Part shown: piece by piece, positions 10,279-64,000 of the stretch | How the letters are laid out: each line of letters begins with the position of its first letter | How positions within the stretch are numbered: position 1 is the first letter of the stretch | Assembly: GCA_973895155.1 (NCBI GenBank) | Contig: OZ316891.1 | Span: forward strand, 4,497,708 to 4,561,707 | Source: Marsupella aquatica | Taxonomy: Eukaryota > Plantae > Marchantiophyta | Length of the DNA: 64,000 nt | Direction: 5' to 3' | Translations under genes and position numbers: made by a program | The notes under the pieces: generated by a model | What the model saw: only the letters and a program-made list of their open reading frames with translations | The model's database searches: none | What the model was told of the DNA's origin: nothing

Positions 10279-10410
10279 ATGGCAAAGTCCGATGCAGGGA
10301 GAATGGGAAAGTCCGATGCTGGGAGTATGGGAAAGTCCGATGCTAGAAGAATGGGAAAGTCCGATGCTAGAAGAATGGGAAAGTCCGATGCTGGGAGCAT
10401 GGGAAAGTCT
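10279..10410. repeat. 24-bp tandem repeat (about 5.5 copies) within the CACTA subterminal region
   Basis: Units of atgggaaagtccgatgctagaaga; an inverted related copy lies near 13238-13270. Confidence 0.9.
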
Positions 10411-10775
10411 GGTTGTGGCAAAAAGACAAATTTTGATTGTGTTAGAATGAAAATTTTTGATGTGTTAGATGGGGTATGTGGTTGCACCGACATACTCTTC
10501 CCAAAAGATGCAATCATTCTTGCATGCATGAATAACTTTATACTTGAGGCAAATGGACTTGAGTGTTGTTTTTGCCTCCTTCCAAGACCCAACATATTGT
10601 TCCCTCAAGGAAATATGTGCTCAACATGTAGCCAAGTCCAAAATACATCATCTAGAAGGAGATTGCTTCTCCCATGTAGTCTTTGTTGCAAGTCCAACAA
10701 CAACATAGTTGATAAAAGATGAGACAATCAGGAGTCATTGATGCTAAGGCTTTGGAAGGACCAAAATATCATCAA

Positions 10776-20400: not shown

Positions 20401-20620
20401 TCTTTGACCTCTTTTCTCAACTGCACTTACCTCTCTGAACACCCGTAATCTAAAGTCTGTTAGACTAGGTATGGTGAAACAATGGTCACAAGTCAACTTT
20501 ATAAACCCACCACCAAGCCTTGATATTCTGGTACACGATTTATGTCTGAAGAGACCTTCAATGACACAAATTTCATCGATCTCCTCACACCACACTTTAG
20601 CCTTCACTAGGGGCTCTGAA
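17482..20620 (-). pseudogene. P-like transposase, catalytic and C-terminal part (frameshifted)
   Basis: Motifs in order: YLAEDET (D1), GHASDGDSRRR (D2), HDQDFIHNGKK (DxxH, near 19328-19360), SDRQNW, TGSDSCEQFFS (E). This matches the P/THAP9-type DDE layout. Confidence 0.8.
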
Positions 20621-36900: not shown

Positions 36901-37610
36901 TCTGGAATGACTATTGAGTTTTTTAATCTTGATATCTCTTGGGTTCTTTAATGACTCTATAAATAATCATTTATGCAATAAGTCCATAATGACTGTATGT
37001 TATTGTAACCATTAATATATCATGATTTTTAGATTGACCCTATATTTAGTCATTTATGCGACAAGTCCATAATGACAGTATGTTGTTGTAAACACTGATA
37101 TATTCTAATTTCAAGATTCACCCTAGAGTTAGTCATTTATGAGAGAAGTCCATAATGACGGTATTTTGTTGTAAACACTGATATATTCTTATTTTGAGAT
37201 TGACCCTAGATTTTGTCATTTAACACCGTTGGTTAAAATGACGGAAATATATTTTTGTCATTTATCACCGTTGTCCAAAATGACCCAAATAGATTTTTGG
37301 TCATTTCAATCATTGTCCAAAGTGACTATAATGGTGCTAAACACTGATTTATCATTGTTGTTATTTATTGTGTCATTTAGGACATGTGTCTAAATTGACC
37401 ATTTTAGGAAAATTGTGTCATTTTGATCGCATCAGTCATTATAGACATTATACAAAATGACGCAAAAGTTATCATTTTATCATTTCAGTCTATTGGTCAT
37501 TGTGGACAGTCATTCTCCCGTCATTCTTTTTGTGTCATTAGAAATTTTGGTCATTGATTCATTTCCGTCATTGGGTGATTGGTCATAAAGGGCCCTGTTT
37601 TCTTCTAGTA

Positions 37611-41666: not shown

Positions 41667-42449
41667 CTATATAATTTTGCCATGATGCACGTGTGAGAAT
41701 GAAATTGGAAATCCAAGAAATATACCCTTTTCTACTATTTTGTCGTTTAGGGTGATAGCCAATCAAAAGTGGACACGTGGGCCAACCCCTCAACAGACAC
41801 TATAAAAGGGCCACCGCCGATAAGTTTTTGGCATCATTATCGAGAGTAGAGTTTTGGGAGTTGTGTTCTTGGAGCAACATTCTGTCCGTTGAGCCTTCCG
41901 TTTTCCCTGATTGCGGGAGGAATGCAAAGCCCCATAGTGTCTCGGATAGCCATGTCTCAATCAGACACAGATTCTCCTTCCAATTCAGTTGAATCCTCTC
42001 CTAATCTTGTCGCTTGCTGTTTGCCAAGTCGCATACTTAAAGCTCTACCTCTCTCACAGCAAATAGTGCCCGAAATCTCTGACTCAGATTCTGATGCAAG
42101 TTCTGGTCCTGAGCCCAGTGCTTACTATGTGTCGCCTAGTAAACCTGAGAAGCGTCGTCTCTTGAGCATTCCATTGCCAAGAAATGAGAAACTTTCAATC
42201 CCAGGTTTAGGTTCGAGACGTCGCTTCAGGCCATCCATCCCGGGTTATGGAGAGGGTATCCGGCGACCGATACGCGTATCGCAATCGACATTCAAGTCGC
42301 CACATTCAACACAAGTTCAATGATGGATCTTTCAGTCTCCGGGTGAGGATCGGGACACAGAAATACAAAGACCGATACGGCGATCGGTCTTTGCATTGCC
42401 TGGACTGGATGTGTGAGCAAGCGAGGGAATCGGACTGCAAAGTCCAGAC

Positions 42450-45400
42450 TTGACCCTTTCTCAAATGGTCCATGGGAATCGTGGTGAACAAGTGCTCAAT
42501 TTTCCAGCAGCTCGCGGAGTCGTTGGGACTGCACGTGCGAATCCAGAATCTCCAAGTTCTCAAGGGCGGACTGTCATTGGTTCCAGGCTCCAAGTATCGA
42601 GGAGAGGTCTTAGTGGCGTTTGGGTTATGTATAGAGAGCCACAGAGTCCAATTGTGTTTTTAGATGAGTCGAGTGCATCGGAGGACAAAGATGAGGAAGG
42701 AGATAGAGAATCCGATATAATAGCACAAGTTGTGTCTGAATATTTAGAAGGAGCTATCGAAGAGAATAGTTATAGTCGTCTATTCAGTGCCCCTCTAAAT
42801 GCGTCAAGGAGATCTATAGAGGATGGTAGCTCAACAGAGAGTGATGCATCTATTCACGAGGCACTTGAAGGACCCAAAAATGCCAATGTTATGAACGGAT
42901 TTCAGGCTGTAGAAAAGTCATATGAGCCTAGTAAAAAAGATAGGGACCGAATTACGAGGAAAGACAATGTGATAAATGACAAATTGAATAGAAACAAAAA
43001 GAGAGAAATTCATAAGTATTCGTGTTGTGATAATTACTGTCTGAGGAATTTGGGTCTGCTAGCCGTGACGAAACAACGCACTTATTACTATGGGCTATCC
43101 TACCCAGGGAAGAACGTCCTTCTAAGAGGATGTGTGAAGGGTGGGCATGCTGGTGCAAGTGGTTACTCAGTTAGCGGTAGATCCTTTTGTCGGAGTGGTT
43201 TTAAGAAATTATTTCACTAGGAAATAATCGTCTCCAAAAAATCTCACAGAACATATTTTCTCGGATACAGATCGGTACAGTGTGTCGAGAAAAATCACCC
43301 GCACATCTTGGTCTCGTCCAATGGCTGGATGATTTTTTTTCCACAAATGTCGAGAGTCTCCCCAACAAGGATATCTTTCATTTACCTGACAATTGGACAA
43401 AAACATAAGTTTTTGATGCCTTCCAGTCCGAAACTCTAATGTGCCAAGAACAAGGCATGACATATTCGTGGTTTGTTCGCATTTGGAACAAGGAGTTTCC
43501 TCGCGTGCGCATCCCCAAAAGGAGCCGTTTCTCCACCTACGCCCCGTGTACTGAATTCAAAGCACTCCTTGACAAGGCAACACTCGAAGCAGAAAAGAGT
43601 AAATTTCTAAACCTGTGTGTTACTCCCGATAATTTTATCGGGTTGAGTATTCATGTGCTTCTTCTTTGGCCATGTGAGTGAATATATCGTTTGAACAATT
43701 TGAATACTGAACCTGATAAATTTATCGCTGTCACAGTTTTTCATTACGGTCTTGTGTTTGAATACTGAACCCGATAAATTTATCGTTGTCAGGGTTTATC
43801 ATTACGGTCTCGTGTTTGAATATTGAACCCGATAAATTTATCGCTGTCAGGGTTCAACATTGCGGTTATCATGTTTTGTCTTAAACATTTTTATTATTGT
43901 AGGAAAATTCTCAACATTGCTAAACGAGCATCAGAAGGCACAAGCAGTCGAGAGGGAGAAGTTAGCAAAGCACCGGAGCAAATGTTACAAGAGTCCCGAG
44001 AAATATTTGGGCATCTGTATTGATGGAATGGATCAAAAGAAGACAGAGTTACCTCATTTCATTCGGTGTCCGAAGAATATGGATGAAAAGTATTTCATCC
44101 CCGTACACGTAGTGGATTGTTTGATCTTCAACAAACAATTAAGTTCAAATGTTTTTTTGAACTATCCAAATATTCACAATGATAGCAACCTGACCATCCA
44201 CGTTATCCAGCATATTCTGAATACCTGGGAAGGTCTGCTCCCTCCAGTGCTTTATCTCCAGCTTGATAACACAGCTCGGGAAAACAAGAATAAATATCTT
44301 ATGGCATATTTGAATATGTTGGTGGAGATAGGTGTTTTCCTGAAAATAAAGGTTGGTTTCCTATTGGTGGGGCACACCCATGATCAAATTGATCAAATAT
44401 TTAGCAAGTTTTCTTCAAAATTGAACAAGCGGAAAGCTTTCCGGTTGGACACTCTTTTAGCAATCATAGAGGAATCCTACAATCCTACAGCAAAGATATT
44501 TTTCGTTGACGAGGTTGCCGATTTCAAGAAATTTGTGTCAGACAAGGATCAAGCAAATGACAAGGATATGGATGGTCAGGTTCTACGTACTCTCCACGGC
44601 ATAAGTGCTCAAAAACAATTTTGGATTACTAGAGTACTCGAAGATGGAAGTGCTCGGTCCGTATTCCATGCCAAACATCTTTCAACGACAACCGATTGGG
44701 GGGAGACGGTGGATTTTGTTCGGTACATTCCATCATCTGGAATGTGGGTCGCACCAGAAATGGCATTGAAGTCGGCCACGGGAGCGACAGGAGACAATGA
44801 AGAGCAAGAGAATGATGCTGAGGAACAAGATGAGCGGGCGGCTCAAAGTTATTTGTCAACTCTTCAAAAATATTGAAGAGCAATTGAAGATGGATTCAAT
44901 TACTTTGACGACGAAGATCGTCTATGGTGGGGTCATTTTTTTGACAAACAAAAAGAAGTGATTCAGCACCACCTGAAACCTGCACAATGGAGTTTTGATT
45001 GGAGTTGGCCCAAGTTAAATGTACAGAGAGAACTTCCGAGTAATCCTACGGAAGCAACAATGGAACCTAGCTTGGTTGATAAAGTAGCGGGTGTGAGGAC
45101 AGTCATGTATTCCGGAAGTCGAAGAAAAGTCACGGAAATTGGAGACTTCAAGGATCTAGAGGTGAATACTAAATTTGCAATGATATGTGTAGCAACCCAT
45201 CAGGATCCCAAGGGAAGACCATTCTGGATGGCAAAAGTGATTGAGATTCTCACAAGAATTAACGACATCCCAGAGCGGATTAAAATCACTTGGTATGCAA
45301 TGGATTCGGAGGAAGAGTCTGCAATTGAAGGCATATATTATCCGGAGAAAGAGACTTCGTCTAGCAAAGTACTGGAGGATGAATTGTCCCTAGTAGAAAC

Positions 45401-45512
45401 TGCCGTTTATGCGTATAACTTTGCGTTATTGGCAAATAGTACTCTCCCTATACAAACAAGACGAATCATTCAAAATGCAATGGAGACTGTAGTCATTGAT
45501 AGTCAAAGCTAG
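42450..45512 (+). pseudogene. Sola1-like/DUF7869 DDD transposase (one intron, stops and frameshifts)
   Basis: Motifs CCDNYCL..FCRSGFKKLF; WNKEFPRVRIPKRSRFS; ICIDGMDQKK; LYLQLDNTARENKNK; LLVGHTHDQIDQIFS. The intron 43599-43902 joins AEK-RKFSTLL in frame. In-frame TGA at 44874. Confidence 0.85.
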
Positions 45513-46442
45513 TTGCAGGTTTAAGTTATAATGGTTATCGTTCCCATGAATATGTACAGTGGTTATCGTTCTGGGACTATGTACTCCGCAGCTATAATGA
45601 TATCTTTTTTTTTGAAATAATTGCAATGACAAACCAGTTAGAGCATACAATGCTAAGTCCGATAAGATTATTGACAACTCCATTCCCCCAGCTAGAACAC
45701 TGCGACAGTCCGATATATGCTAAGTCCAATTTATCGCATTAATAAAGGTGACAAAGCACTACAACACTACCTACACCTTTTGCGAACTTGAAAGCATCGC
45801 AAACAACAAAGGAAATCAAAAAACAAAACTCGTCTTTGCGAAGTATTGCGCATCGCAATAGAATCGCAAACTGCGAAGCCCAAAGGTTTGCATCCGGTCT
45901 TTTGCAAGACCTTCGCAACGCCTTCGCAACTTGCGACACTAATAGAATCGCAAAGGACTCACATTTAAGCGACTCCATGGGCGTCGCGAGAGGATTGCGA
46001 TAATAATCAAGCAGTTAAATATTTGCAATCCCAGGAGTTTGGTAATATGTTTGCGATATTAAGTGAATGGTAGTTATGCCATGAAGATCGCTTCGCATTT
46101 TTGTGAACTTATGTGGTTTGCATAATGTTTGTGATACCTTCAGTATGGTAAATATGCGATTTGGGTTGTTCGCATAGGTTTTGCAAGATGTCTTGAGGCT
46201 AGGGTTTAGATTTAGAGTTTTGAATTATGGTTGGGGTCTTGTTGTCCAACACGGAGAATGAGGTCTGAATCAAAATTTCTTTATAGAAAATTGATAGGTA
46301 CACAAAAATTAGGGTTTCCTAAACCCTAAACCCTAGATGGGTGTCATATGACAAGCTAGGTCCCTATAAGACAACCCATGATATCAAAACTATATACGAC
46401 ACTAAGTAAATGGGCATCCCATAGGCACTACACCACCAAGCT

Positions 46443-48409
46443 CTAGAATGGGGTCCTCCTACTCCTTGTCGCCGGCCTCTTCCCATTGTCCCTCTTGCGA
46501 CGATCCGGACGTGGCATAGGAGGTGGTGCTGGCTGCTCCTCCACATCTGGTTCCTCCTCATCCTCGTCCTCATCCTCTTCCTCCCCCTCCTGCTGGGAAA
46601 CTCCTCCTACTGGTCCAGATCCACTACTCCCTCCTACCTTGGGCCCCTTTGTCGTGGTCCCCTCATTGTTCTCATCGGTGCTGCTGGTATCACTAGCATC
46701 CTCATCATCCTGTTTGCACAGCACAACGCCAAATTGGTTTAGGTTTACGGAATGAAAAGATAAGTGGATTGGGTGGGAAAAACTGAAGGGGATACATGCA
46801 CTTACAGTCGCCAACTCTGCGTCAACCAAGTCAAAGAGATGTTTGGCTCCATGCGCAGCTCCTATCTCCATCTCTTTTGCTGTTATCTTCCTGCGGTACC
46901 TCTTATACTACCACAACCAAACATTCCAAAACCAAAATCGATCGAGGTTAATATGCTATAAACCCAAGAAAAATGCATGGAGGTGCTTATAGGGGGCCCC
47001 CTAGAACACAAAACTGGGCTCAATAACCCTTAGCGGTATTTTTTAAACATAATACACACTTGCGAAACGCCCCACTTCGCAAATTCAAATAAATTGGCTG
47101 CTTGCGAAGTAGTTTGCGAAGCGGGTTAGTTTGCAATAGCTTTGCATCTACAACTTTAAAAAATGCCATGATAGACTTTGCGAAACATTTGCAAAGCAAC
47201 CCGCATCGCAAAAGCTTTGCAAACTCTGTTTTTAAAAAATTCCGAGAAATCTCTAAGGCACGCAATGTGTCAGGGTGACCTAAAGTACAAGGCAGGCCGT
47301 AAGAAAGAAACAAGAGGTATGCAGGGGGGCATTGCAGGTTTGGATAGCAATTGAAAGCAAGGAAACAGAAGTAGGGGAGGAGAGGGCCCACTCACAAAGT
47401 GTGCTTTGAGGCCGGGAAGTCCACCTTGGCCCATCTTGTGCGTGGTCTTGGGCCGTTTGCTGACTCGCTCAGCTACAAGGATGAATTTTTGGGGTGGTGC
47501 CCCCACTTCATCCACAATGTGCTGCATGTGAGACACCTTCTCAGCCATTGCCTTGAGGTCTCGGTCGGACTTCCCGGCCTTCTGTGCCTTGGCTTCCATC
47601 TCCTTCCAGAAGAGAAGGTTCCTGGCAGCTCTCATCTGCACCTCCACTTTGTAAAAGGCATTCCACACGTCCTCAGTGAATTGCAGTGGCCTCCTCACGT
47701 TTTTGTACTCCTCCAAGTTCGCCTGGTAGGCCCTTACCTTCTTCCTATCATGGTACCGTGCTTGCGACATTGAATTGGAAATTCTATCTGCAAGCCACTG
47801 TTCATCAATCTCTGCTCCATTTCGAAATGAATCTTTGATTTGACTCATTACTTTCTTCTGGTCTGCCTTGCTGAGTTTCCCCCACTCAACTCCTCGTGCA
47901 AAATTGGAGCGCACCATAAGCCTGATAGTGCTCTTTGCCCTGGTGTAGGCCAGTTCAGTAGGAATGCCTTTGATCAAGGCAATCATAGGCAGCTTCTTCC
48001 TCTCTTCCTCCTTCTTTCGCTGCTCCTCCCGCTGTGCTCTTATCTCATCTCGTTCCTCTCTCCTCCTCTTCTTTTCTAGGGCAGCAGGTGAGACTACTCC
48101 TGCCTTGGCCCTCTCCTCCTTCTTACGCTTCTTCTCTCTTGCCTTCTGTTGAGCTGCACTCCTTTGCTCCTCCTCCCTTGCAATGTTCCCTACATCTACT
48201 CCCGTTTGCAAGGCTTGCCCTAGGATTGCACTCAAAGAAGCAATCCCTGCTGGTGTAGTCAAATCTAAGTGGCTCAACTGTGTTGCATTGAGGTGCTCAG
48301 CCATCAAATCGGTCCATTGATTCCTCTCCTGCTCCCCATTGCCTTCATTCCCATTGCCACTGTCACTCACCCCTGCCCCATCACCTCCATTTGCTCCACT
48401 GGAATCCAT
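46443..48409 (-). CDS. CACTA second ORF (TnpA/Transposase_24-like), spliced
   Basis: MDSSGANGG start at 48409; EWGKLSKADQKKV, RRPLQFTEDVWNAF and KTTHKMGQGGL motifs resemble TnpA/PTTA proteins; GTGAGT donor near 47395; acidic last exon at 46443-46710. Confidence 0.6.
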
Positions 48410-48924
48410 AGCTAAGCCACCCCCGAGCGTGCGCGAGCTCCCTTCTCCCTCCCTACGCTTGAAATTTTTCAAATGCCGCTGAGTACGCCGCGGTCGAGTG
48501 CAAAAGTACAAGCGGGAAAGACTTGCGAAGCAACCCATTTCGCAAGTTGCGATCCTTCTAGTTTTGCATGTAGTTTCTCAATTTTGCGAAACCATTGCAA
48601 CGTGAAAGGCTTCGCAACACCTTCGCTCTCTCGCAGAAATGCTCTCGGGCTCTGTTTTTTTGAAGGTCGTGCGAAAGCAGCAGCTTCGCAAAACTCAATT
48701 CTAATTTGTGACGGTATTTGCGAAGGAAGCGGCTTCGCAAGACATTGGCAACTCGTCCTGGGGGGAATGTTGGTTTCATTTGAAAGGGTTTTTTTCAAAG
48801 GTGAAGTGGACCCCTCTATACTCATATTTGGAATGCTTTTTGGCCATGTTTTGGGTGTTAGATAATAGTTGAAGGCGGGTTTGAAGGGTTAGGCAAATTT
48901 CAGGTTAATGGGTTATGTATGGTG

Positions 48925-49135: not shown

Positions 49136-49708
49136 TTGGATAAGACAAAGCAAGGTTTCATGAGATTTCTATTGCAGCCTTTTGGGTTTAAGAGAGGTTC
49201 ATTGGGTTTATGAATCAAAAAGGGATTGGCATGGGTTTTGCTAACAAAGGAGGGGAGTATATGATAGCTTGCAGGGTGCGGCACTTTTTGATGATTTGAT
49301 ACTAATGCATATGCATTGTGAGAGCCCGGGCATCTGAAAGGTAAACATTGCATGATCGGCTCAAGTGTTCCTTTCATGTACTTAACACTTTTGGTTGCCA
49401 CTATGTATAAAGGGGACATGTATATAGGGTTTTTTGTTCTTGTCTGGTCCAGATTATTGTGCTTACATATACATGGAATGGTTGCAGCTTTTCCCTCATA
49501 CTTTCAGATTGGGTTCATTAATTATCTTAGAGCCACAAGACCGTTTAGCACTACTGAGCCCGGGTCTCATAAAGGTACCTTTTTTATTGCTATGGTCATT
49601 TTGGTTTGGGTTTCTTGTCATCATTATTTGGGAACTTTGATTTATATCATTTTGTGGTATGTTTTGGTCATAACATGCCCATTTTAATTATATCTTGTTA
49701 CAGGGGAT

Positions 49709-50861
49709 ATGTCTTCATCTTCTGAAATCTCCACCACAGACTCGTCCTCCTCTGATGAAGATACACCACCTCCACCTCAACATCACACGACCGCACCTCC
49801 TCCTCGCGGTCCACCCCGTCAACTTTGTGAATGTTCCAGATGTGTGGGTCAGGTTTCCCAAAAATCTTACATATGTGCCCAACATATTGAGAGATATGGG
49901 CGTTGTGGACGTCATATGGCAGGGGCTTCTTCATCTCATATGGTAAGTGTTATGCCTTAGTTTTCCTACCCTATTCCCATTACTCAATGGTTGAAGGTTT
50001 TTAATTTCACACCTACTTTTGTTTGTTTTGGTTTCTGTGGAATAGGTATCCAATAGGCCTAGACCTGCGGCACAAGCACCCTATGTCCCATCACAAGGTG
50101 TTCTAGATGCTATAGGCAATGCATTCTCAAAAGCCTTGGGTCTAGCGGCAAGGCCCACCAGTCCTAGGGAAGTTGGGGTTGAGGCTATTGTCCCAAGAGG
50201 GAGAAAGCGTTCCAAGAGGCGGGCCTGAGGGGATACTGATTTGTACAAGGCAGTGGTTACGGGTAGGTGGGGTGATTGTGAGTTCATTGGCAGATGTGTC
50301 CCTATCATCAAGGACTGGGATCCTGAGACTCTTGGTTTGCCACAACAGCTTTCCTACGGTGCGGAGGTAGAGGTTTGGGGTAGACGTTGGGGTATCAAAC
50401 CTTCCACACTTGGGGATAGACATGGCTATGGAGTTTTTGCCTGTGAGGACATCATTGTGGATGCCGAGAGTGGTAGAGGTGGACGCAGCCAAGAGGGGCC
50501 TACTTTGTTTCCTTATGGTGGACCCATCTACAAGAGAAGACATTGGAACATGATCCTTGCACAACACCTTGAGTGGAAGACTTATGCATTGGACATGGAT
50601 ACTTTTGATGGAAACACTAGAAGGTATAGTGAGCAGCGTGTCATAGATGGGGACCCCATACGGACTGGGAATATTGCTGGTTTCATAAACATTACCGTGG
50701 GGACTCGCCCTAAGCGTAGGCAAAATTGTGAGTGGGTTTTCATTGAGGGTCCTCCGCCAGCACCTTATGGCCAGACATATCATCATGACCATTGCCTAGT
50801 TGTAGCAACGAGGACCATTAACTCAGGGGATGAGTTATTTACTCACTATGAGTGGGATTAG
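49709..50861 (+). pseudogene. SET-domain (lysine methyltransferase fold) gene inside the CACTA, with one in-frame stop
   Basis: IKPSTLGDRHGYGVFACEDI..LFPYGG..YAL..IDGDP..GNIAGFIN..QNCEW..VVATRTINSGDELFTHY. Exon 1 (49709-49942) splices in phase 0 to 50046. TGA at 50226. Confidence 0.85.
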
Positions 50862-53583
50862 GGTTAAGTTAAGGGTCATAGGTGGTATGTTGCATATCAA
50901 AGGACACTACATATGGCCTTTGGCCACATTTTGTATTTGCACCACAACCAATATTATTTCATTTTTGCACACCCCTAGCCCATTTTTGTGTGTGTTCTCT
51001 TTGCAATATAACTTTCAATTGTTTGCTCTGTTTTTAGAATGTGCGACCCTCTCCAAATATGTTACCACGGAGATTGAGAGCAACATATCGAGAAATGGGT
51101 ATGCCAGAAGAAGGACATGGATCAGAGTCACACTCCTCATCAAGTGCTAGTGGAAGCAGTAACCCTGATGAAGAGGTACCTCGGACGGATGAACAAGTAA
51201 CTGATGACCAGGATAGAGCCATGGATGACTTCATGGTTGATTGGTTTGGTGCCGACAACCCTGGTGATGACCTTCCCAATGAAGGGCAGGTGCCCCCTAA
51301 TGATCCACGCCCAAGACATACCCCTGAGGGACAACGCCAATGGGAAGAAGCAGAGGAACATGCCCAAACACCTATCTATGAGGGTGCTCGTTTGAGTCAT
51401 CTTTCAGCCATCTTGGGGTTGATGAACCTACAGGCCAAACACAAGGCAAGCAATGCCTTGTTATCTGATATGTTTGCACTTTGCCATGACCTTATGTTAC
51501 CCCCTGAGAATGTGTTGCCAACAACTTGGAAGGAGGCAAAGAGTGTTCTCTCATCTATTGGCATGGAATATCATATTGTTCATGCATGTGTGAATGATTG
51601 CATGTTATTTCATGGGGCCAATGCAAACATGACACAATGTACAACATGTGATGAGCCTCGCTATGACCCCAACATGCTAACAAAGAAGGTGCCAAGGAAG
51701 GCTGTTCGTTGGTTTCCCATCATTCCTCGGTTGTTGCACATGTATCGGTGTTCTGACATGGCAGAGTTGATGGTATGGCATAAGACTCATCGATTAGAGT
51801 TTGGTGTCATGCGGTTGCCAATTGACTCCCCTGCTCACAAACATATTGAGGCAACATGGCCAGACTTTGCACATGATCCTCGCCATGTGAGGCTAGGATT
51901 GGCATCTGATGGAGTTAGCCCTCATTCACTTGGAGGAAAGGGGCAACCTACATCAGTTTGGCCTGTGGTTGTCATGAATTATAACCTCCCACCATGGCTA
52001 TCCATGAAGAAGGGGTTTCTTTTATTGTCTTTGATTATCCCAGGTCCAAAAAAGGTGAAGAACTTTGACACTTACTTGGCACTATTGGTTGGAGAACTTC
52101 AAAAATTATGGAATGGAGTGTGGGCATATGATGGCAGGAAAATTACAGGAGGTTTTCCACGTGTCTTTCAATTGAGAGGGATCATTTGTTGGACAATGCA
52201 TGACTATCCTGGTAAGATGACTTCCATGCCATTTGCAACCCTTCAATAATGTGTAGTTCCTATTGTTGTTTCCCATGTGACAACCCTAACATAAAGTTTG
52301 CATGGTTTGATTTCTTCTATATGTAAGCAGGGTTTGGTTTTGTCTCTGGATTGCAAACTCAGGGGTACAAAGCTTGCTCTACTTGTGGCCCAAGCTTAGA
52401 GGACATGGCCACATATTGTTCATGGATTAGAAAGATTGTTTATATTGGGCATACAAAGTTTCTTCCCATGGGGCATGAGATGAGGTTTGACCCACTTCTA
52501 TTCTCCTCCTTTGACATGCCATTTGGTGATGAGCGTGAAATTCCTGATGCAACAAGTTTTGCACATTGGAAGTCACTAGCTGATAGGGTGGCAGACCCAA
52601 ATGATTCCTTCACCTTTGATAGGACAGGTTTGACCAGGTGGAGTATACTAGCCACTTTGCCCTATTGGTCTGAGTTGAAGATCCGCCATCTTTTAGACCC
52701 CATGCACATAGAGGGAAATGTGGGGAAGGCTTTGATAAAGCATTTTTATGGGGAGAAGGACACTAATTTTAGGGAGGCATGCGAGGAGATGGAAATGCAT
52801 CCAGATGTTTGGGTGACAACTGATCCTATCACAGGTGTGGAGAATCGCCTTCTGCTCCTTGGGTGTTGAGTGTTGGCCAAAGACATGAATTTCGGAACCG
52901 TATAGGAGAGATGCAGTTTCCTATAGGCTATGGTGCCAACCTTCGAAAAGCTTTTGGGATGGAGGACAATCACAAGTGGCCACGATATCTGAAGACACAT
53001 GACTATCATCGCCTATTGCAGCATATATTGCCAGTGGCAATTATAGATATAGGGAGTGAAGAAGTGCAAGATGCCATCTGGTCATTGGGTCGTTTGTTGA
53101 GATGGATATGCTCAAAGGAGATATATGTAGAAGAGATCCCTGGGATGGAGGTAGTGGCAGCTGAGGTGGTATGCAAGTTGGAGAAAGCCCTTCCTCCTTC
53201 CTTCTTTGATTGTCAGGTTCATTTACTTGTGCATCTTGTGCGGGAGGTTGCCATTGCAGGTCCAGTGCATTGTAGATGGATGTATTGGCTTGAGCGTTAC
53301 ATGGCGGTGTTGAAGGCTTATGTACGTAACCGTGCACGGGTGGAGGGAAGCATAGCTACAGGATACTTGGCAGCAGAGAGTATGTTTTATTGTAGTAACA
53401 TCTTGGCCACCATTGATCCTACTTGTCCACGTACTTGGATGGAGAAAAGTGAAGAGGAGGAGGACCGTTTAACAGGTGCCACAAAAACACGCATGTTGAC
53501 ATCAACAGAGTGGTCACAGTTGACAACATTTATGTTGAGTAATAGTAATATCATGGAGAAATGGAGAGAGTTTTATGAGAATG

Positions 53584-55940
53584 TGTGACGCCAATGACAT
53601 GGTCCTTATTTTGTAATCTGATTAAGTAGGTTGCTGTATGCAAGGAGTAGCTATTGATATTGCATAACAATTAGCAAGATGGCAAGAATAAGGGCAATCA
53701 TGGCGTTAAGAGTAGGGAAATAAAAGCTATGTCGCAGGTGGTCGGCGACCATATCTCTTTCAATATGTCACCAAATCCGGATCTGTAAAGAGCATTGGAA
53801 AGATCTGGTCAAGGCGAGTAAAATCGATATAAAACACTCGGGAAACGGAGGTGTATTAAGAAAGATACGGCCTGATTAGTGTGACAGGTTAACTTGTGGC
53901 CGGAATTAGCGGATTCGGCTTCAGTTTCGGGTTAACCCAAGCTCGACCACGGCTTAGCTTATGTGAGCACGGCTTCAGCTTAGCTCAGGTCAGCACGGCT
54001 TCAGCTTAGCTCAGGTAAGCACGGCTTCAGCTTAGCTTAGGTAAGCACGGCTTCAGCTTAGGCTTAACCCGGGTTCGGATTAGATTGATCCCGGGTTAGA
54101 CTTAACTCGGGGTCAGGTTAGCATAGGTAAGCTCGGGTTCGGGCTCAACTTAGGCTAGGATAGCGGATAGCGGATAGCGGGTGACGGCCTAACCCGAGAC
54201 CACGGGTTAGCTCTACTCGGGTTAGATAGGATAGCTAGGTTAGCCGAACTCGGGTTAGCTATGTAACTCGGGTTAGCGCAACAGTGAGTACCCCCTCTCG
54301 GTTACGGGGGCATAACTCTCTGTGTATTTGACCAAATCGGCTATAATTGACCTCGTTGGAAAGAGGAGCTCAAGCCGCTTCCAACGCTGCTATCCACGCA
54401 GAAAATGGTTAAATAGAGAAATCGGGAGAGGAGGCGCAAGCTTGCGAAAACTATGGAGGAGGGCCGAATCCGAAGTACATAGCCAATTCGAGATAGAAAT
54501 AAAGTTGCGAGTTAGGGTTCAGTAGTTAGAGATAGTGGCGGCTCTATTAGGGCTGGGATGGGGCTCCAGCAGCGTAGCATCCACCCATTTGGGCTCAATG
54601 AGAGAGTATATAGAGCATCCCTCCGGTAGAGGCCGGGGGGGGGACTTCAGTTGTGTGATCTCACTTAGACTGAGTAGCGGGGAGGAGCTCTGTGCAAGCA
54701 AGGCTGGACTTGGACGCTGCGTGTTGGGGAGAGCTTGGTTGTGCTATACTCAGGGAGTAATCAGCCAAGCTTCACAGCAACGGGTTGCTAGGTTTGCGAG
54801 CTGGATTGTGGCTCTTTCTAGTGGGCAGCACAACTGGGTTCTTTTCCCCCGATACAGAGCCTTGGTGATAGGTGATGTATTGGTGATTATAAACTGTGGG
54901 GAGGATTTCAATTCGATTTGCGGTGGGCACATTAGGGAGGCTGAGGTACTGATTAAGGGGCAGCAGGAGGAGCATTTACAGTTCAGTCTGGCAAGGCTAC
55001 GTGACCCATGGGGAGTCCCGGCCTTTGTCTGGTGGAGAGCACTAAGGGATCTATGGCCAGAGCTGAGCTTGCAGGGCAAGCGTGAGGCCGGGCCTCATTG
55101 CAGTCTGGGGTAGATCGCCGTTAGGCCTGGTACCAGCTTTGAAGTCGAGTCAACTATGCATGCGTAACTTGACGTTCTGAATTGGAGGTGTGAGATCTGT
55201 ATGTGCCCCCAAGAATGAAGTGCAGTGAAGGAGGTTGAGTTCAGGATTGAGCTTGCATGGCAAGCACGGGGCTTGCAGGGCAAGCACGTCACAATCTAGA
55301 GGAGACAGCCTTCGGCCCTAGTGTTCGGATCAAGTGTTCTTAGTGAACTATTGTGCACATCTTTGAATCTAATTGAGTTTTCCTCTCAGGCCTCATTTCT
55401 CTCATGGATGTGTGTGTGTGTGTGAGGCAATCTGAGTGTATGATGGAACTAGCAGCGCCACTGAGAGGTGTACCGGGTGCATTGAAGCGGGCTGGGTGAG
55501 GACTGTCATAGCTCTGATTGTTGAGAGTGGAATGGCAGAGTGGTGGGGCAATGGCTTAGAAGTCCCTAAGCCGGGAATCAGTCAGGAGTCACTGGTTTAT
55601 GGGTACATTCCGGCGGCGGAATAGAAACATACCTATGACAGTAAGCATATGTATAGACCTATGCGCACCGTAGCGCTAGGCCCTGTGTGTACGGGCCCGA
55701 TATGAAGACCCCTTCTCACCAGAACTATCATGAGCGCAGATCTGATCCCCAACCTCGGTTCCTTGGGATTGAGCTTGGGTGATGTGTGATAGAGTCTTGC
55801 TATGATAGTCTGGTGTTAAGGGCATAAACTGGTGTTTACCGGCATTCACAACATCCCTTCGTGATCCTCAGGTACAAGGAGATGGTTTTGGCACCCATAG
55901 TGACGTTTTTGGTGTTAAGACCCATGTCAATCGCGTGACA
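53584..55940 (+). mobile_element. Solo LTR (2,357 bp)
   Basis: TGTGACG...CGTGACA with a 5-bp TSD GAATG (53579-53583 and 55941-55945). Removal restores the transposase frame. Confidence 0.93.
53945..54280. repeat. Short tandem repeats in the LTR (26-bp gcacggcttcagcttagctcaggtaa; aactcgggttag units)
   Basis: Direct inspection: about 4 copies of the 26-mer followed by dispersed aactcgggtt units. Confidence 0.85.
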
Positions 55941-56097
55941 GAATGCCAAGAGAACAAGTCAAAGAGCAAGAATTTTTCCTAAGATGCATGAGTATATGAA
56001 GCAAAAGTTGCTTGAGTTGGATGACATGGTGACACAAGGAGGAGATGTATCCCACTTTCCTACCATCACAGATGACGTTCGGACCTTTGAGAGTGGA

Positions 56098-56806
56098 AAT
56101 GCCTCATCCACTCAAACTTGTCCATGCCATGCAAGAATTGTCCGCTTCCCGCTTTCTCCAAGATTCACCCAAACTCTAAGAAATGCATCTAATCGGTCAT
56201 ACGAGAAGCACCCAAGCATATCTATGGGAGGGAGGAAATGAGTTTCCTCTCGGAAGACCCTAGCAATATGTATGTTTGAGAGAAGGTTGGCATTAGGAAT
56301 GCTTGCGAGCATTTTGTTTATGTCATTGATCTCACGGATTGCATATTTCAATAGCGCCCAAAATCGTGTACCAACAACAAGATGGTTCCATTTCTTTGAG
56401 GTGGCTCCATTTCTTGTAACTATTGTTGTCGTCGTCTTGACAACAAGTACCACAAATAGGCTCACTTCTGTTGTAAAATTTGGAACGAAGACCCTTGGGT
56501 GAACCTTTCACGATGAGTGTTTCGACCTTTGCATTGAGGAGCGTCTTGTAAGGACATATTTAAATAAACAAGTCCTACCCTTGCGCAGCGAATATAATAC
56601 GTCACGAGTCCTAATCGTTAAACTATCGTGCAGGGTTGGTACTATGGATGTGTTCGGTTACACCTGGTGATTGAAGGTATTTTTATTGGTGGTTTTGGTA
56701 GCTCTGCTTCATGGCTGCGTCGGAGAATCTAATCATTGCAAAGATGGGATCCGTTTTAGCCCACGAGCGTAGGAAATATATTCGAGGAAAAGTGCCCGGT
56801 GTGGAA
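56098..56806. repeat. Rearranged duplicate of the F-box-like locus (direct part plus inverted part)
   Basis: 56098-56409 matches 61369-61680 directly; about 56410-56806 is the reverse complement of about 61836-62232. Confidence 0.92.
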
Positions 56807-56818
56807 ACATACATATTG

Positions 56819-59800
56819 CTAGGATGCACAACCCTGGCGAGAATTGAGGAGCGTAGCAGCTAATGTCAATCTGGTTTCACAACAAAGATCAATAACCCAA
56901 TCCTCTTTCTCAGAGAAATGGGAAACAAACCAAGCCCCCAAACCAACAGGCTTCTGATACGGGTTCACAAAAAATCCCAACGGATCAACGGACTTCTTGG
57001 TTACACATGGAACCTTGATGATATTGATGCGAGACTCATCCGGTTGGAAATTGTACATGTCCATGTTCCGAATGCCTTTCTCGCTATAGAAACCTATCGA
57101 CCAGTTCTCAAAACCCCACGCCAATCGAGCTCCAGCGGGACGCTCATGAATGTTAGTCTTCTCCTAGATTCCAGCCTCGACCCCACAGTTGCATACACTC
57201 TCCAGTGCAGACATCACCATATACGTTTGTTGTAGTGAATGGATTACAACAAACCTCCACTGCTTAGCGGTCGTCATCTTTGAGAAACTTGTCAACATGT
57301 CTAAAATGTCCTTTTCTATGAAGGCCACTTCATCAAACTCCGAACCAGGAGCATTAAAACCATACGAAATATCCGCAACCGCAAGGGTGTAAGCCCTTGG
57401 CTGAACAAAAGAATCCAAAATTCAAACATCACCAACATGGAGATAGTAGGGAAAAGAATCCCCGTCTGCATTTTTCCATGTTTGTTCAAATGCTTCTGCT
57501 GTGCCCTCGCCTAAGGACCTCAGCCGATTGTACTTATCGATTGCAACAAGCACAAAATTCTTAAACACATAAGGGATTTCAGCTGAGGGAACAATAACCT
57601 CCCCCGCAGAATTATAATTGACAGCCGGAACCACTTTGCTTTTCCTTTTTGAATTAATCTTCAGCTGTAAAAATGTCAGACACATCTACAGTTAGAATAG
57701 CGTGAGATGAATGCTAAAGCCGATAAAAATCTCACGATGGAGCACGCTAGCCGATAGATGCAATCGCTTAGAAACCAACAAAGGAATGCTAAAGCCGATA
57801 AAAATCTCGCAATGGAGCACGCTAGTTGATAGATTGAATCGCTTAGAAACCAACAAAGGAATGCTAAAGCCAATAAAAATCTCGCGATAGAGCATGCTAT
57901 GAGAGGAATGCTTACCGCGTCACTCAATTTCTCCGCCCATATGCCAAGGACCGAGACATCTATTTCGTTGGGAAACATTTCTCTGCATGTTGCCCAATCT
58001 GGCTGACCAGATATCTGCAAAAATAGTTCCTTCACCTTGGCAAGCTTTTTCAACTTCTCACCTTCCTTGTGCATTTGATCCAAAGAGATCACCTTCCCAA
58101 TAACCCTATTCAAGAGACGCTTGACATGCTCCTTATTTGACAGTCCTTGGAGACCTCGAAATGAATTTAAGTTGAGGTCACTAGCAAGTTTATTCATTTT
58201 AATCTCCCTTACCGTCAAAGGTTTTACCTTTCCCTTTGCGTTCGTCGTTGCCACAATTTTTTTGGGTTGTCCTAAGACAATACCTTTCTCCCACATCTGG
58301 AAAATCTGCTCCTGAAGATCCCAAATTTCACCTGTTCGGAAAGCAATTTGGAAAGCCGGATCATGTTTGGCCATGGAGTCACGAACTCCTGGCGTGTACT
58401 CCATCATGCATTCTTGACAACATGCTTTGCGGACATCTTTAGTCGAGCCTACACCCATTTCAAGGAAAATATTGTGACAAGCGCGAACTTGGTCAATTTT
58501 AGTCATGTTCTTCCGATACTCCTAGTCATAGTTATGCTGGAAGCCTAACTTTCGGACCTCGGATCTCGTAAGCCCAGCGTAAACCCAAGCTTCCAGCTCA
58601 CCATATATTTGCTTCCCGTACATTTTAAACAACTTGGACTTTGCCCGAGCACCATGATTCCCTCCAATAATTCTATACTTCCATACCCTTGACTTCAGGA
58701 TGTCCCAATCTGCGGTTGTGGGACAATCCTTTGGATCCACACACAGCACGAACGGGGCACTGAAGTTGGTGGGATTTTTCATGAGAAGTATCTTGATATT
58801 TTCCACATGCAATCTATCCACTGGTCCAATCAAAGTTGACAAATCCCCCTCCTCATCAAATATGAGATTGTCGACATGCAGAAGCACAGTTGTCCTTTGC
58901 ACCCTTCGTTGCATCAGAAGACTGAGCTCTACCTTGATCGCGTCCGTCTCATACATCGAAAGAGCCGTCTCCTCCTCCTGATCAGCCTACAAAAGCGTTG
59001 CAAATTCAATTAAGGAAAGAAACTGTGAGATTTTTATCGGAGTTCGCATTTGTTCAACATAACTCCACAATCCGCAATTTAGGAAATAAACAGCGAGATT
59101 TTTATCGGATTTCATATTTGTTAAACAGTACAACGACATAGTACTTACCAATGGCGCCGCGGGAAACCACGACTGGAACTGATGGAATTGACGGAGCTCT
59201 ATCTACTTCTGCAGCCACCATCTCAATCCAGCCAGTCCTCTTCCTCTTTGTGCTAAGTCCAGAACCAGATGGCCCGGATCCCTCGGATCCTTTACTTTCG
59301 CTTGGTTTAACGAATGGTCCTCGACGGTTGCCCCGGCCTCTCCCACTACCGCCAGTTTCCTGGCTCTTCTTCCCACCGTCAGAGGTTCCCGCGGCATCTC
59401 CCCTGCCGCTACCTCTCCTTTTCCCTCTTCTACTTCCCGAAACCCGACCAGAAGTTGTAGGTTCGTCCACGTCAATATGTGTAGAGGATTGCAATGGTTC
59501 TTTCCGCCCCGACATTTTATCGGCATTAGAACCACCGCTGCCACTTGAACCTGGTTTCTTGAAAACAATTTTGCGGACAGGTTTGAACTCTTCACCCACA
59601 AGTCTCTTGTACTCTGCGTTCACCCTTGGAAGCATGATGGCATCACAATCTTGCACATACTGGCCGATCCAAGCTGAACCCATAACATTCATCTCTCTTG
59701 CTGCCCAAACTTTGGCAACAAGGGGATCTTCTGGATAACTGTCCATCGATTTCTCATCAAAGTTATCGAGAGTAACAATGAGAGATGTGAAACCCTTGCG

Positions 59801-60118
59801 CCCACACATTGTCAAGAAACTAAGGCCCTCTGTCAACACTTTTCCCTCCCCGTGGCCAACCATGAACTTGACGACGGCAATAGCAATGATAGGGCCATAC
59901 GAAACATTAACCTTCGCCGATTTTTGCAACTGGACCCAAAGGATTGGGGTAGCACAATCTTCGAAACCCGTGGACTGTAATCTGGCGTCACGGAAGTACC
60001 ATGATTTCTTGATACACTTGACCTCTTCACAAATGTCTTCACTCGTCCAAATTGCATTGGTGAGGCTTGTCATGAGACTTTCTGCCTCAGCAGATCCACT
60101 CTTTCCACTAGCAGCCAT
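56819..60118 (-). pseudogene. ParB-like domain plus beta-class N4-cytosine/N6-adenine DNA methyltransferase fusion (spliced, 3 premature stops, 3' truncated)
   Basis: Exon 58986-57916 has KYRIIGGNHGARA (ParB-like). Exon 57664-56819 has YTLAVADISYG (motif IV; TCG is one transition from CCG, giving DIPY), NPYQKPVGL and WVIDLCCETRLT (motif I; three transitions from DLCCGTGST). The exon 2/3 splice is in phase. Joining exon 1 (60118-59149) needs a 1-nt indel. Confidence 0.8.
57690..57912. repeat. About 75-bp tandem repeat, 3 copies, in the MTase gene intron
   Basis: gaatgctaaagcc(g/a)ataaaaatctc(a/g)c(g/a)at occurs three times. Confidence 0.85.
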
Positions 60119-60354
60119 GGCAAAGTCTGCAAATAAACAAATTCCAATGCAAAGAGCGATAAAATTATCGCCGCCAATTTCACAGCACATGTGGACACGA
60201 CATCTCATCACACAAGGACAAAGAGACCCACAATTCAAATGACCGATAAAATTATTGCAAAAGTGAGCCTTCTTTAAATTGACGGCCGAGTGTACAGGTC
60301 GAAGAATCAGCTACGGAACCCTAAATCCAAAACCTTAACCCCTAAACCTAAACC

Positions 60355-61067
60355 CTAATCATAGTTGAACCTCGCCAGAGTGAAGCGTTCGATCCGCTTC
60401 TTGGGCCATTGGGGAATATGAGTGACGTGATGATCATAAGCCCACAGCCAATGGAAATCAACTTCACCAGTCTCAGGATTCACTATTGCTACTGAATACC
60501 GGCGTGACGGAATGTCACAACAAGCATTTGTGCAGCATGGACAGATCTCACCATTGGCAAGGACGTTCGTCCACAGGCAACTTACATAGATCAAGTTAAA
60601 GAGCGCACAGACCGGCTGGGGGGGAGTTGATGAATCTTGTATGAATATAGTTTCCCACCAGTGTCAATAAAAAACTCGGTGGCAAGATTATTGTCCAGCT
60701 CGTCAATCACATCCTGAATCTCATCGAATGCTCTACGTCTGTTGTCGGCATAGAATTCTGGATCATAAGCAGGATTGCCCTTCACAACATGACAGCAGTG
60801 GAGTATAAAACGTCTTACTGCACCGGTTTTCAGAAAGAGTAGGATAACTCTTCTAGAAAATCCAACATATCTATCCCACCGAAAATAAATTTCTCCCCCT
60901 ACCTGATCTACGTAGAAGTGAAATGCGTTATGGTAAAACAGTTTTACTACCAGCCTACATATCTTTAAAATTAGTGACTCATCCAGCCTCCTTAGCTGGT
61001 CCAGCATGGCTCCATTCCCCCATTCTGGAGGATCCAAGTAGGGTACAAAAATGCGTCGCTCGAGCAT
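60355..61067 (-). CDS. Hypothetical cargo protein(s) with a Cys-rich C-terminus (two abutting ORFs, possibly one frameshifted gene)
   Basis: ORFs 60591-61067 (158 aa) and 60355-60594 (CPCCTNACC) overlap by 4 nt. Confidence 0.45.
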
Positions 61068-61382
61068 GGCTTGATCACCGAATAGAAATCAGGAATAAAT
61101 TTTGGAGAACATACTAATTACAATTCTACAAGTTTCATCCAACTTTACAATACCTTGTATAACGGGCTGTGAAGCCAATGCACTTGTCAGCTAATCGTCC
61201 GAAGAGGCGCAAAAAAATATACTCTGGACCACACAACCCGAAGTCAGGGGAGGCAGAGTCAATTACATTCAAAGTGTTTCTTTACAAGCTCTTCTCGAGC
61301 AAACCTTAGAGCACCCAAAATCGACTAGAGGAATGAGGAGTGCAATAAATTTATCGGATGTTCGCAGCAATGCCTCATCCAC

Positions 61383-61931
61383 TCAGACTCGTCCATGCCA
61401 TGCAAGAATTGTCCGCTTCCCACTTTCTCCAAGATTTATCCAAACTCTACGAAACTGATCTAACTGCTCATACGAAAAGCACCCAAGCATATCTATGGGA
61501 GGGAGGAAATGAGTTTCCTCTTGGAAGACCCTAGCAATATGTATGTTTGAGAGAAGGTCGGCATTAGGAATGCTTGCGAGCATTTTGTTTATGTCATTGA
61601 TCTCACGGACTGCATATTTCAATAGCGCCCAAAATCGTGTACCAACAACAAGATGGTTCCATTTCTTTGAGGTGGCTCCAAGACAAATGATTGTTCTCAT
61701 TCGAGTCAGTCGTTCTTCTGGTAGAAGTTTTAGGTCAAGGCCAAGGTTTTCATCTTGTGTGCAAGACAAGGCTAGGAGGGGCCAAATGTGAGATTCAACG
61801 AGGTGATCGGGAAGTCCATTCAACAAACTTCCGCATTCCACACCGGGCACTTTTCCTTGAATATATTTCCTACACTCGTGGGCTAAAACGGATCCCATCT
61901 TTGCAATGATTAGATTCTCCGACGCAGCCAT
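61383..61931 (-). CDS. F-box-like protein (182 aa), intact ORF
   Basis: GSLLNGLPDHLVESHIWPLL...ICLGATSKKWNHLV resembles the F-box consensus LPDDL...IL..L...VSKRW..L. Confidence 0.55.
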   Translation of the reverse strand: MAASENLIIAKMGSVLAHECRKYIQGKVPGVECGSLLNGLPDHLVESHIWPLLALSCTQDENLGLDLKLLPEERLTRMRTIICLGATSKKWNHLVVGTRFWALLKYAVREINDINKMLASIPNADLLSNIHIARVFQEETHFLPPIDMLGCFSYEQLDQFRRVWINLGESGKRTILAWHGRV

Positions 61932-64000
61932 GAAGCAGAGCTACCAAAACCACCAATAAAAATACCTTCAATCACTAGGTGTAACCGAACACATCCACAG
62001 TACCAACCCTACACGACAGTTTAACGATTAGGACTCGTGAAGTATTATATTCGCTGCGCAAGGGTAGGACTTGTTTATTTAAATATGTCCTTACAAGACG
62101 CGCCTCAATGCAAAGGTCGAAACACTCATCGTGAAAGGTTCACCCAAGGGTCTTCGTTCCAAATCTTACAACAGAAGTGAGCCTATTTGTGGTACTTGTT
62201 GTCAAGACGACGACAACAATAGTTACAAGAAAACTCCAAAGAATGTAAACACGCCATTAACATCAACCTCGAACAAATTGGAACTCCTGCATCATTCATT
62301 CCGCAGAATTCAATGCGGAGAGGATTCTGCCTATCTCCAGGATCAGTACCACCCATCCACAATGCTCCTATATCGATGGGGAGAACTCTAAGTCGCACGA
62401 GTCTCTTGTACAACCGGCGTGCACATTTGACACGATTTTCAAGGAAGACAGCCATTTTTCACAATACCTGTTGTCCACGGAGTGCAATCGACCTTCCGTT
62501 GTGCCTCCTAAACCCGGCAACACTGCGACATCAGAGATGAAGATGAGTCTCCAAACAAAACAAAGGAAAATGATTCTCACAGGAGGATGCGATAAGTTTA
62601 TCGCACTCCACATTCGAATTGAAAATATGACTTCCTCAGACACCTAAGCCCTGAATTCAATCTTTCACAAAAATGACAACTTCGATAAATTTATCGGATT
62701 CTCAATTACTCCTCTTTCCATGAAAGGAATGAAGACTCCGATAAATTTATCGAAATGAAGGCAACACCTCTCTAAACACTGGATCAAATGATTGCAACAG
62801 AGGAATGCAGAATGCGATACATTTATCGCTCGGATCTGGACATTTTACACTAAATGACTAGTTAGTCTTACATGGAGAACTTGAATAGGAATGGCTGTTC
62901 CGATAAATTTATCGGGTTTTCGGTAGAAAGAGTCGAATTGCTTGGGAGGAATGTAAGACTTGATGGGAGTTTGGTATTTGCTCTCAGTCAAGAGATATTT
63001 GCTCTGGCGAAAGCAAACGTTTTATGGGCAGCCCGCTCCTCTTTATATAGGAGACGCTCTAAACCATGGTTAATTTCCCCTTAACCATGGTTAAGTTTCC
63101 CTTTTACCTGGGTTAGTGCGTGGTCGTTCCTGGATTACAAGGTTCGGACCAAGTTACTCGCAGTTTGGACTTTTTCACTGACGGAATGTAAAACCCGATG
63201 CACGTATCGCTCCCTGCATTCCCGCGGTGATGCAATGGAGGAAAGTGGCATTTCGGAGAGTTTTTGCCAATTTTATCGGTCATTGCATTGCCTTAGAAAA
63301 AAAATGGGATCGGGCTAAACGAGAACTCCAACACACTTCTCGGTCGGTCCAAAATCGTGTTTAGAGTCAAATATTCAAAATTGTATGTACCAAATGATGA
63401 AAAATTGTTACTGTCCATACCATTAGAGTCAAATATTCAAAACTGTATACATGTAGCAAATGATGAAAATTGTTACTCGATAGTGGATGTGGAGTTCCAC
63501 GAAAGAAGCCGGCCACAATCTCGTTATGGTGACTAAACTTACAGTCACTGATGGATATGTGGGGCTTCGTTCTCTTGCGAACCCCTGGAGGTGGCCATGG
63601 TCTTTTGAACGCTTCCCGCACCTGTAGTGTATCTGATTCTGCTCTACCAGAACACCTGTAGTGTATCTGATTCTGCTCTACCAGAAGGTAACCGGTGTGT
63701 CATTGAAACATTCTTGAATGAAGTCTTTCATATCTGTGATATCCAGCAAAGTTGGATTATACGATAACAATCCGCGGTTTGTTAGACTATAGCTGAATCT
63801 CAGGACTTACGTGTTACGCGACAACAATCAGCGGTTTGTTGAAGGAGTATCAAAAGCTAGTTTTATGGAACACGTTATGTGCGTAGTAGGAGTACTACTA
63901 CTACTACTACTGACTTGAGAGCCTGCCAAACTCTGTAGATGACAATGAGAGCCTGACTTGAGAGCCTGCCGAACTCTGTAGTGGCTAGCCGGACGAGAAC

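Follow-up and report, generated by a model that had tools for sequence, protein, structure and literature searches.

The 64,000-nucleotide stretch of the liverwort Marsupella aquatica analysed here (positions 4,497,708 to 4,561,707 of contig OZ316891.1; hereafter the window) contains part of a CACTA-type DNA transposon in which an exon encoding a SET domain lies between a short exon with a zinc-finger motif and the exons of a TnpD-type transposase (Table 1). A terminus beginning with CACTA is present at 45757 together with subterminal repeats, and the exons downstream of the SET exon carry both Transposase_21 (PF02992; E 1.4e-37) and DUF4218 (E 9e-35). A sequence-only reading of this DNA had proposed that one promoter could yield either a zinc-finger–SET protein or a zinc-finger–transposase protein, depending on the splice acceptor used.

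The exon on which this proposal turns (49709–49942; 234 nt, 78 residues including CECSRC...QHIERYG) was re-derived from the sequence and does end in phase 0, at ATG/GTAAGT (the slash marks the splice junction). Both acceptors named for it, AATAG/G (50046) and TTTTAG/A (51038), likewise continue in phase 0, the chance of each phase match on its own being 1 in 3. Downstream of the first of these, the exon runs to a stop codon at 50859–50861 and encodes a SET domain recognized above the Pfam cut-off (PF00856, E 5.8e-6, 27.1 bits versus 22.4), with the motifs GYGVFA, GNIAGFIN and GDELFTHY present as had been read. However, an in-frame TGA intervenes at 50226–50228, 60 codons into the exon, and the frame opened at 50046 therefore fails to reach the SET domain in the window copy; a Calypogeia relative has an arginine at this position (protein alignment). 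Similarly, the NIT tripeptide reported in place of the canonical NHS is there in the window copy but is private to it and no trait of the family, as a serine occupies its isoleucine position in 82 of 90 aligned relatives. Since the SET exon of the window copy has no methionine before mid-domain, it needs the zinc exon.

The window copy of the element is dead and unable to make either protein: in addition to the TGA in the SET exon, its transposase carries a frameshift and is interrupted by a solo long terminal repeat (LTR), and no right end was found within the window, the element being severed at 56097. Contigs of four of the five sequencing runs listed cover all 30 bins of the stretch that was compared, and at 52847 those of all four have one extra T relative to the window. 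In run X1, one contig spans the zinc exon to the SET exon and another the SET exon to the transposase; X1 is possibly the window's own source and so is not independent of it.

Conservation of the layout and the predicted SET protein

Relatives of the SET protein were found at 25–85% identity in Sphagnum, Calypogeia and Riccia. A word search yielded 48 relatives among 120 candidates, the named ones being from Calypogeia fissa (up to 81% identity) and Sphagnum species, and an exhaustive search yielded 89 representatives down to ~28% identity (20 of them were looked up, and the named ones came from Riccia sorocarpa (5) and Calypogeia (1)). NCBI models of 343–359 amino acids, which is the length of the joined product, exist in Sphagnum jensenii, S. 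troendelagicum, S. balticum, S. compactum and S. fallax as well as in Calypogeia, and in those examined, which come from Calypogeia fissa and several Sphagnum species and are gene predictions, the junction between the zinc exon and the SET exon falls where it was expected. In two Riccia models (P0089 and P0131) and one Sphagnum model (P0140), a partial SET runs into the transposase, which attests to adjacency; the order therefore holds at ~40–45% identity.

A metagenome scan added 36 loci out of 168 pattern matches. These loci were selected by their SET and 35 of the 36 look like one Sphagnum-type family, so that they are not independent. The transposase lies directly downstream of the SET in 24 of the 27 loci whose sequence extends far enough, and the zinc exon lies upstream of it in 12 of the 16 testable loci, all seven misses being SET fragments cut on the side concerned. 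The window copy is a more distant member of the family than the Sphagnum-type ones; its SET groups with Calypogeia P0001 (support 93, quick-method tree). The tree comprises 77 rows (76 of 93 sequences, those with at least 150 filled columns, and P0228 in addition) and includes no host SETs, so the family cannot be placed among host SETs by this means. No canonical host SET gene was recognized among the named matches of both protein searches, most of the 89 exhaustive matches being nameless. In viral and prokaryotic collections, relatives made up 0 of 9 and 0 of 45 pattern matches, respectively, with patterns able to catch only close relatives; a giant-virus SET cluster appears in the ESM Atlas at 0.96 and SETs at 12–23% identity in a viral fold library, neither of which shows an origin.

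Two further observations concern these relatives. P0114 and P0155 (Calypogeia fissa, ~503 amino acids) are distant members of the SET family (30–33%) with a different N-terminal part and a weak DUF5763 match (E 0.09), and may reside in another element or be domesticated. Furthermore, the liverwort–moss alignment of Calypogeia P0001 and P0228 with Sphagnum P0007 extends through the low-complexity linker, which, together with the 49% fourfold-site identity between the window and the Sphagnum-type loci, may be taken as a lead for horizontal transfer.

The splice sites are conserved along with the order. The donor GT of the zinc exon falls at the same codon in all 12 loci holding this exon, the near acceptor AATAG/G is kept in 11 of 12 (the twelfth has AATAA), and the far acceptor AG/AAT is kept in 22 of 24 loci and also in L003, which represents a third lineage. 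The short intron of the window is 56% identical to that of locus L004, a value reached by 0 of 200 shuffles, whereas the spacer between SET and transposase shows 46% identity, the same as shuffled DNA (46%; 63 of 200 shuffles reach it). The layout thus goes beyond chance, since all three splice sites persist among relatives whose spacers have diverged to the level of shuffled DNA. In addition, the codons N-[VI]-R-P-S that precede the first methionine of the transposase exon are kept, with silent changes, between the window copy and most loci, as expected if an upstream exon were joined to them in frame.

The zinc exon had been said to resemble the transposase-associated domain PF13963. In the window copy it matches no Pfam family, PF13963 included, and an ESM Atlas search with it gave no usable match; the resemblance does emerge in relatives, the zinc-motif fragments of five of eight matching PF13963 below cut-off (E 0.0011–0.11). 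Given these matches, the motif probably represents a diverged version of the N-terminal domain that belongs to the transposase itself.

The ratio of nonsynonymous to synonymous substitution rates (dN/dS) is 0.20–0.31 both for the SET (window versus 20 loci) and for the zinc exon (window versus 11 loci), and 0.10–0.16 for the transposase core (window versus 6 loci). These codon comparisons show that the SET of the family is under purifying selection: the exon is kept across family copies and species, and its divergence between families is non-neutral. Identity at fourfold sites is 0.49 for the SET and 0.43–0.53 for parts of the transposase, so the two have diverged in step. A recent exon swap, or an extra constraint on silent sites, was considered in view of a synonymous rate (dS) of 0.70 for the SET versus 1.33 for the transposase, and was rejected as the difference vanished at fourfold sites (Fisher p 0.13–1.0, four pairs). 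The order conserved in the 36 loci, the dN/dS values and the equal silent-site divergence of SET and transposase thus support the earlier proposal that the SET exon is an integral component of the transposon and no random capture.

A structure model built from 93 sequences had a predicted local distance difference test score (pLDDT) of 89 and a predicted template modelling score (pTM) of 0.85; a first model, from 18 close sequences, was discarded (pLDDT 38), and a single-sequence search of the PDB gave 0 matches. The Foldseek list for the retained model is filled by SET domains, and VIA-align gives Z scores of 11–12 with root-mean-square deviations of 2.3–3.0 over ~120–135 residues against solved SET domains. 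As modelled, then, the product of the SET exon has the SET fold. Set1, EZH2, SET7/9, SET8, ASH1L and LegAS4 are tied within 1 Z unit, so the comparison points to neither one subfamily nor one substrate.

The Gly-x-Gly, Tyr-x-Gly and Glu-Leu-x-x-x-Tyr motifs of SET lysine methyltransferases, whose roles are established, are present according to the column counts: G66, G68, Y101 (89/89), N154 (82/90), E202 and Y207 (72/76) are kept, as are D140-G141 and N148. The bryophyte SET thus shares with the solved domains (LegAS4, SET8, Set1/MLL, EZH2, SET7/9) the fold and the Gly, Asn, Glu-Leu and Tyr positions, although its identity to them is only 14–27%. Fold and residues together predict lysine methyltransferase activity, and we consider it likely that the protein is catalytically active. 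The best profile match, Legionella LegAS4 (E 7e-6), likewise lacks the histidine of the Asn-His cofactor motif (Y-I-N-F-S), so that this motif is not strictly defining.

Element boundaries and surrounding features

Table 1. Features of the CACTA element, numbered from the first letter of the window
Feature	Position	Strand	Evidence or remark
Left end of element, CACTACAA terminus then TTCGCA/TGCGAA motif cluster	45757..46200	.	start like L009 and L012; motif density
Second element gene, probably two exons	46443..48409	-	open reading frames; same place in 5 loci; head to head with transposase gene
Two likely non-coding 5' exons	49304..49574 (ends at 49340; 49508-49574)	+	each ends ...AAAG/GT; kept in L003
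First coding exon, Ser/acidic tail and CxCxxC...H zinc-finger motif	49709..49942	+	phase-0 donor GTAAGT
Short intron, 103 nt, ending in proximal acceptor	49943..50045	+	AATAG/G
SET exon: linker with basic stretch, SET domain, stop	50046..50861	+	broken: TGA 50226-50228, Ser-to-Ile in N-S motif
SET-to-transposase spacer, 176 nt; distal acceptor AG at 51036-51037	50862..51037	+	AG/AAT kept; no well-placed conserved donor
CACTA (TnpD-type) transposase exons; intron ~52212-52330; frameshift near 52847	51038..53583	+	Transposase_21, DUF4218
Solo LTR, foreign to element, inserted in transposase	53584..55940	.	TG...CA ends, GAATG target duplication
Transposase remainder past LTR, cut by another repeat at 56098	55941..56097	+	tblastx to L002, L005, L010, L013

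The element begins with CACTACAA at 45757, and loci L009 and L012 have an identical CACTACAA...TCGCAAACAACAAAG or near-identical start. The motif TTCGCA/TGCGAA occurs at this left end at 15.8 per kb, as compared to 0.2 per kb across the 45.7 kb to the left. It forms three clusters in all (45757–46200, 47001–47300 and 48481–48800), with densities of 16–25 per kb versus 0–0.4 elsewhere, which flank both exons of the minus-strand gene and are possible binding sites for an element-encoded protein. This gene has its equivalent at the same place in L004, L006, L009, L012 and L016, with 37–58% identity to the counterparts in Sphagnum-type loci; no Pfam match was better than E 0.069, and the gene may be TnpA-like from its general resemblance.

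On the other side of the gene, both 5' exon stretches are kept in L003 at 76–88% identity, so the zinc exon, which had been called exon 1, is likely the first coding exon only, with non-coding exons before it. The transposase remainder past the LTR matches L002, L005, L010 and L013 with E values of 5e-16 to 2e-13. None of the fetched loci shows both ends of the element together, the right one being where a matching terminal inverted repeat and a 3-bp target duplication would be expected.

The window contains several other repeats. The one that cuts off the transposase (56098–62232) has 300-nt direct copies at 56098 and 61369 (95%) and 397-nt inverted arms (56410–56806 and 61836–62232, 98%) around minus-strand open reading frames that belong to no clear Pfam family. 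To the left of the element lie a transposon-like gene (41850–45512; DUF7869, E 7e-47) with an in-frame stop at 44874–44876, and a tandem array (31877–37222) of 7–8 copies of ~570–580 bp units that are 60–92% alike and include inverted pieces. Broken open reading frames on the minus strand at 17836–20622 give a weak match to a TNP-like RNase H domain (E 0.068) and are likely what is left of a decayed P-like transposase. Finally, a short remnant of another CACTA transposase (10501–10587, minus strand; E 8e-7) sits beside a 24-nt tandem repeat (10264–10455).

Splicing model and competing explanations

Taken together, these data lead us to propose, with a probability of roughly 0.7, that bryophytes harbour a CACTA family with a conserved SET exon in its transposase gene, two proteins being made from one transcription unit by choice of acceptor, and that the window holds a dead copy of it. 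Transcription would start from one promoter upstream of ~49.3 kb, and the zinc finger would lie in the first exon to be translated. If this exon is joined to the near acceptor and the transcript terminates within the spacer, the product would very probably be a protein of ~345–360 amino acids composed of zinc finger, linker and SET, a predicted lysine methyltransferase. Skipping to the far acceptor would probably give the zinc finger joined to the transposase, a join that is favoured because the AG and the codons before the first methionine are conserved. In this scheme, the SET transcript would likely end within the spacer, which in the transposase isoform would be the last part of a long intron. 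The idea of one zinc exon with two partners, as put forward in the sequence-only reading, is thus indirectly supported by conserved splice sites and gene models, though no database protein has the zinc–transposase join.

What the SET protein would do is the most speculative part of this proposal. The shared zinc finger may recruit it to the transposase or to the element itself, and by methylating histones there it would help the element to stay expressed or mobile in the face of host silencing; the histone substrate and the anti-silencing role are suggested by analogy with VANC and TnpA, and we hold this part tentatively, at somewhat less than even odds. Bolder still, and doubtful as a whole, is the view that a land-plant transposon lineage found in both mosses and liverworts produces, as an alternative splice form of its transposase, a histone methyltransferase of its own, that the shared zinc finger directs this enzyme to the element, that the element switches by splicing between rewriting its chromatin and jumping, and that SETs with serine for histidine form a class specific to transposons, which may have passed horizontally between bog liverworts and Sphagnum.

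Several findings weigh against the proposal. A methionine at codon 8 of the transposase exon, a possible translation start, is shared by the window copy and all 23 loci listed. None of 14 longer zinc-exon proteins joins the zinc exon straight to the transposase, and none of six longer transposase matches is joined straight to the zinc exon (both sets are predicted models and hence weak). Near-identical Sphagnum-type copies have dN/dS values of 0.74–0.82 for the SET and 0.67 for the transposase, as in copies that decay after insertion, and only 4 of the 18 full SET exons of the loci have an open reading frame. As the 36 loci were fetched by their SET, they are silent on the share of family elements that lack it. 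As for the enzyme itself, the cofactor motif keeps its Asn but has Ser instead of the usual His of SET domains in 82 of 90 relatives, and the domain ends two or three residues past the catalytic tyrosine.

The last of these points bear on a different role for the protein. Splicing could occur as proposed and the SET protein be no histone writer, methylating instead the transposase or a host silencing factor, or acting as an inactive decoy or reader. The change from His to Ser in the cofactor motif fits such a role, as does the fact that no histone-specific subfamily stands out in the structural comparisons, and the shared zinc finger could pair the SET protein with the transposase. We nevertheless regard it as rather unlikely, given that the active-site Tyr and Gly positions are nearly invariant over the whole 25–85% identity range and that the domain is preceded by a basic stretch, which we take to be a nuclear signal. 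LegAS4, also devoid of the histidine, has moreover been solved with a histone H3 peptide (8swi).

Alternatively, the two parts could be tandem genes, one encoding zinc finger plus SET and the other a transposase that has no zinc finger and starts at the codon-8 methionine, expressed from its own promoter or from a read-through transcript. The conservation of that methionine and the missing zinc–transposase join speak for this arrangement, and Arabidopsis EN/SPM families alternate between spliced and split-gene layouts according to the excerpts available from PMC13547354. Yet AG/AAT and the codons before the methionine are conserved in three lineages despite unalignable spacers, the zinc motif resembles a domain associated with transposases, and a spacer of ~140–220 nt offers little room for a 3' end plus a promoter, which makes tandem genes improbable. 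A three-part fusion of zinc finger, SET and transposase would require a donor inside the SET exon; several conserved GTs exist there, but the best of those in phase 0 score 5/8, as against 7/8 for the true donor, and the fused models P0140, P0089 and P0131, in which the SET is truncated, seem to be misannotated. Lastly, CACTA elements do capture gene fragments, and the window copy and most fetched copies are broken, but passive Pack-CACTA-style capture of a host SET fragment carried without function is largely refuted by a dN/dS of ~0.25 between families and the same SET position from Sphagnum to Riccia, as well as by the lack of a canonical host SET gene among the matches that bear names, which are a minority of the 89 exhaustive ones.

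Related transposons and implications

The arrangement recalls maize En/Spm and Arabidopsis EN/SPM3, in which, as described in the available excerpts, the TnpD transposase and the TnpA regulator are produced from one gene by alternative splicing, the Spm3 TnpA being reported to act against silencing (PMC13547354; bioRxiv 10.64898/2026.08.24.746577). The bryophyte family shares with them the CACTA terminus, a transposase with Transposase_21 and DUF4218 and, as we infer, an accessory protein obtained by alternative splicing. It differs in that its putative second product is a SET-fold enzyme, whose exon lies within the first coding intron and which shares a coding zinc-finger exon with the transposase, and in that the opposite strand of the element carries another gene, possibly TnpA-like, in head-to-head orientation.

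SET domains have been described in transposons before, even within the EnSpm/CACTA superfamily. Red-algal Plavaka elements, which belong to it, carry the SET accessory gene PAG2, for which a chromatin role is proposed in the parts available of bioRxiv 10.1101/2025.02.11.637652. In both cases a SET domain is a conserved accessory of a DNA transposon of this superfamily; as far as that description goes, however, PAG2 stands as a gene of its own in giant elements, where it is fused to a DNA adenine methylase, whereas the bryophyte SET is a nested exon in a canonical land-plant CACTA. No DNA methylase domain was found in the joined models P0001, P0007, P0015, P0019 and P0027 or in the window open reading frames that were scanned. 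SET genes are also known from HarbingerS and oomycete MuDR families (Kojima and Jurka 2014, Repbase Reports, as cited in PMC12730594) and from Helitrons (as cited in bioRxiv 10.1101/2025.02.11.637652). These, too, are transposon-encoded SET methyltransferase genes, but of other superfamilies and hosts, and the passages available of these sources describe no exon sharing with the transposase.

The sequence-only reading was aware of no such description for plant CACTAs; for land plants, no report of a land-plant CACTA with a SET exon was found in the literature covered, which lay outside Repbase and subscription journals, and the portions available of PMC11982613 and PMC4158355 contain nothing on the bryophyte CACTA–SET family. 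The family is likely to be like En/Spm in its splicing and like other SET-bearing transposons in its cargo.

The described plant anti-silencing factors, VANC and TnpA, bind DNA and bring about a loss of DNA methylation, according to the excerpts available. If our proposal is true, a lysine methyltransferase of the transposon's own, spliced into the transposase gene, would be a different counter-strategy, one that writes a mark. Since open-frame copies exist (in 4 of the 18 loci and as the 343–359 amino-acid models from Sphagnum and Calypogeia) and the protein is small, its substrate is directly testable, and moss and liverwort models are available for in vivo tests. Finally, transposon copies likely account for many of the genes annotated as 'SET domain-containing' in Sphagnum, Calypogeia and Riccia, one cluster of which comprises 360 members; they would inflate the counts of host chromatin enzymes in these plants.

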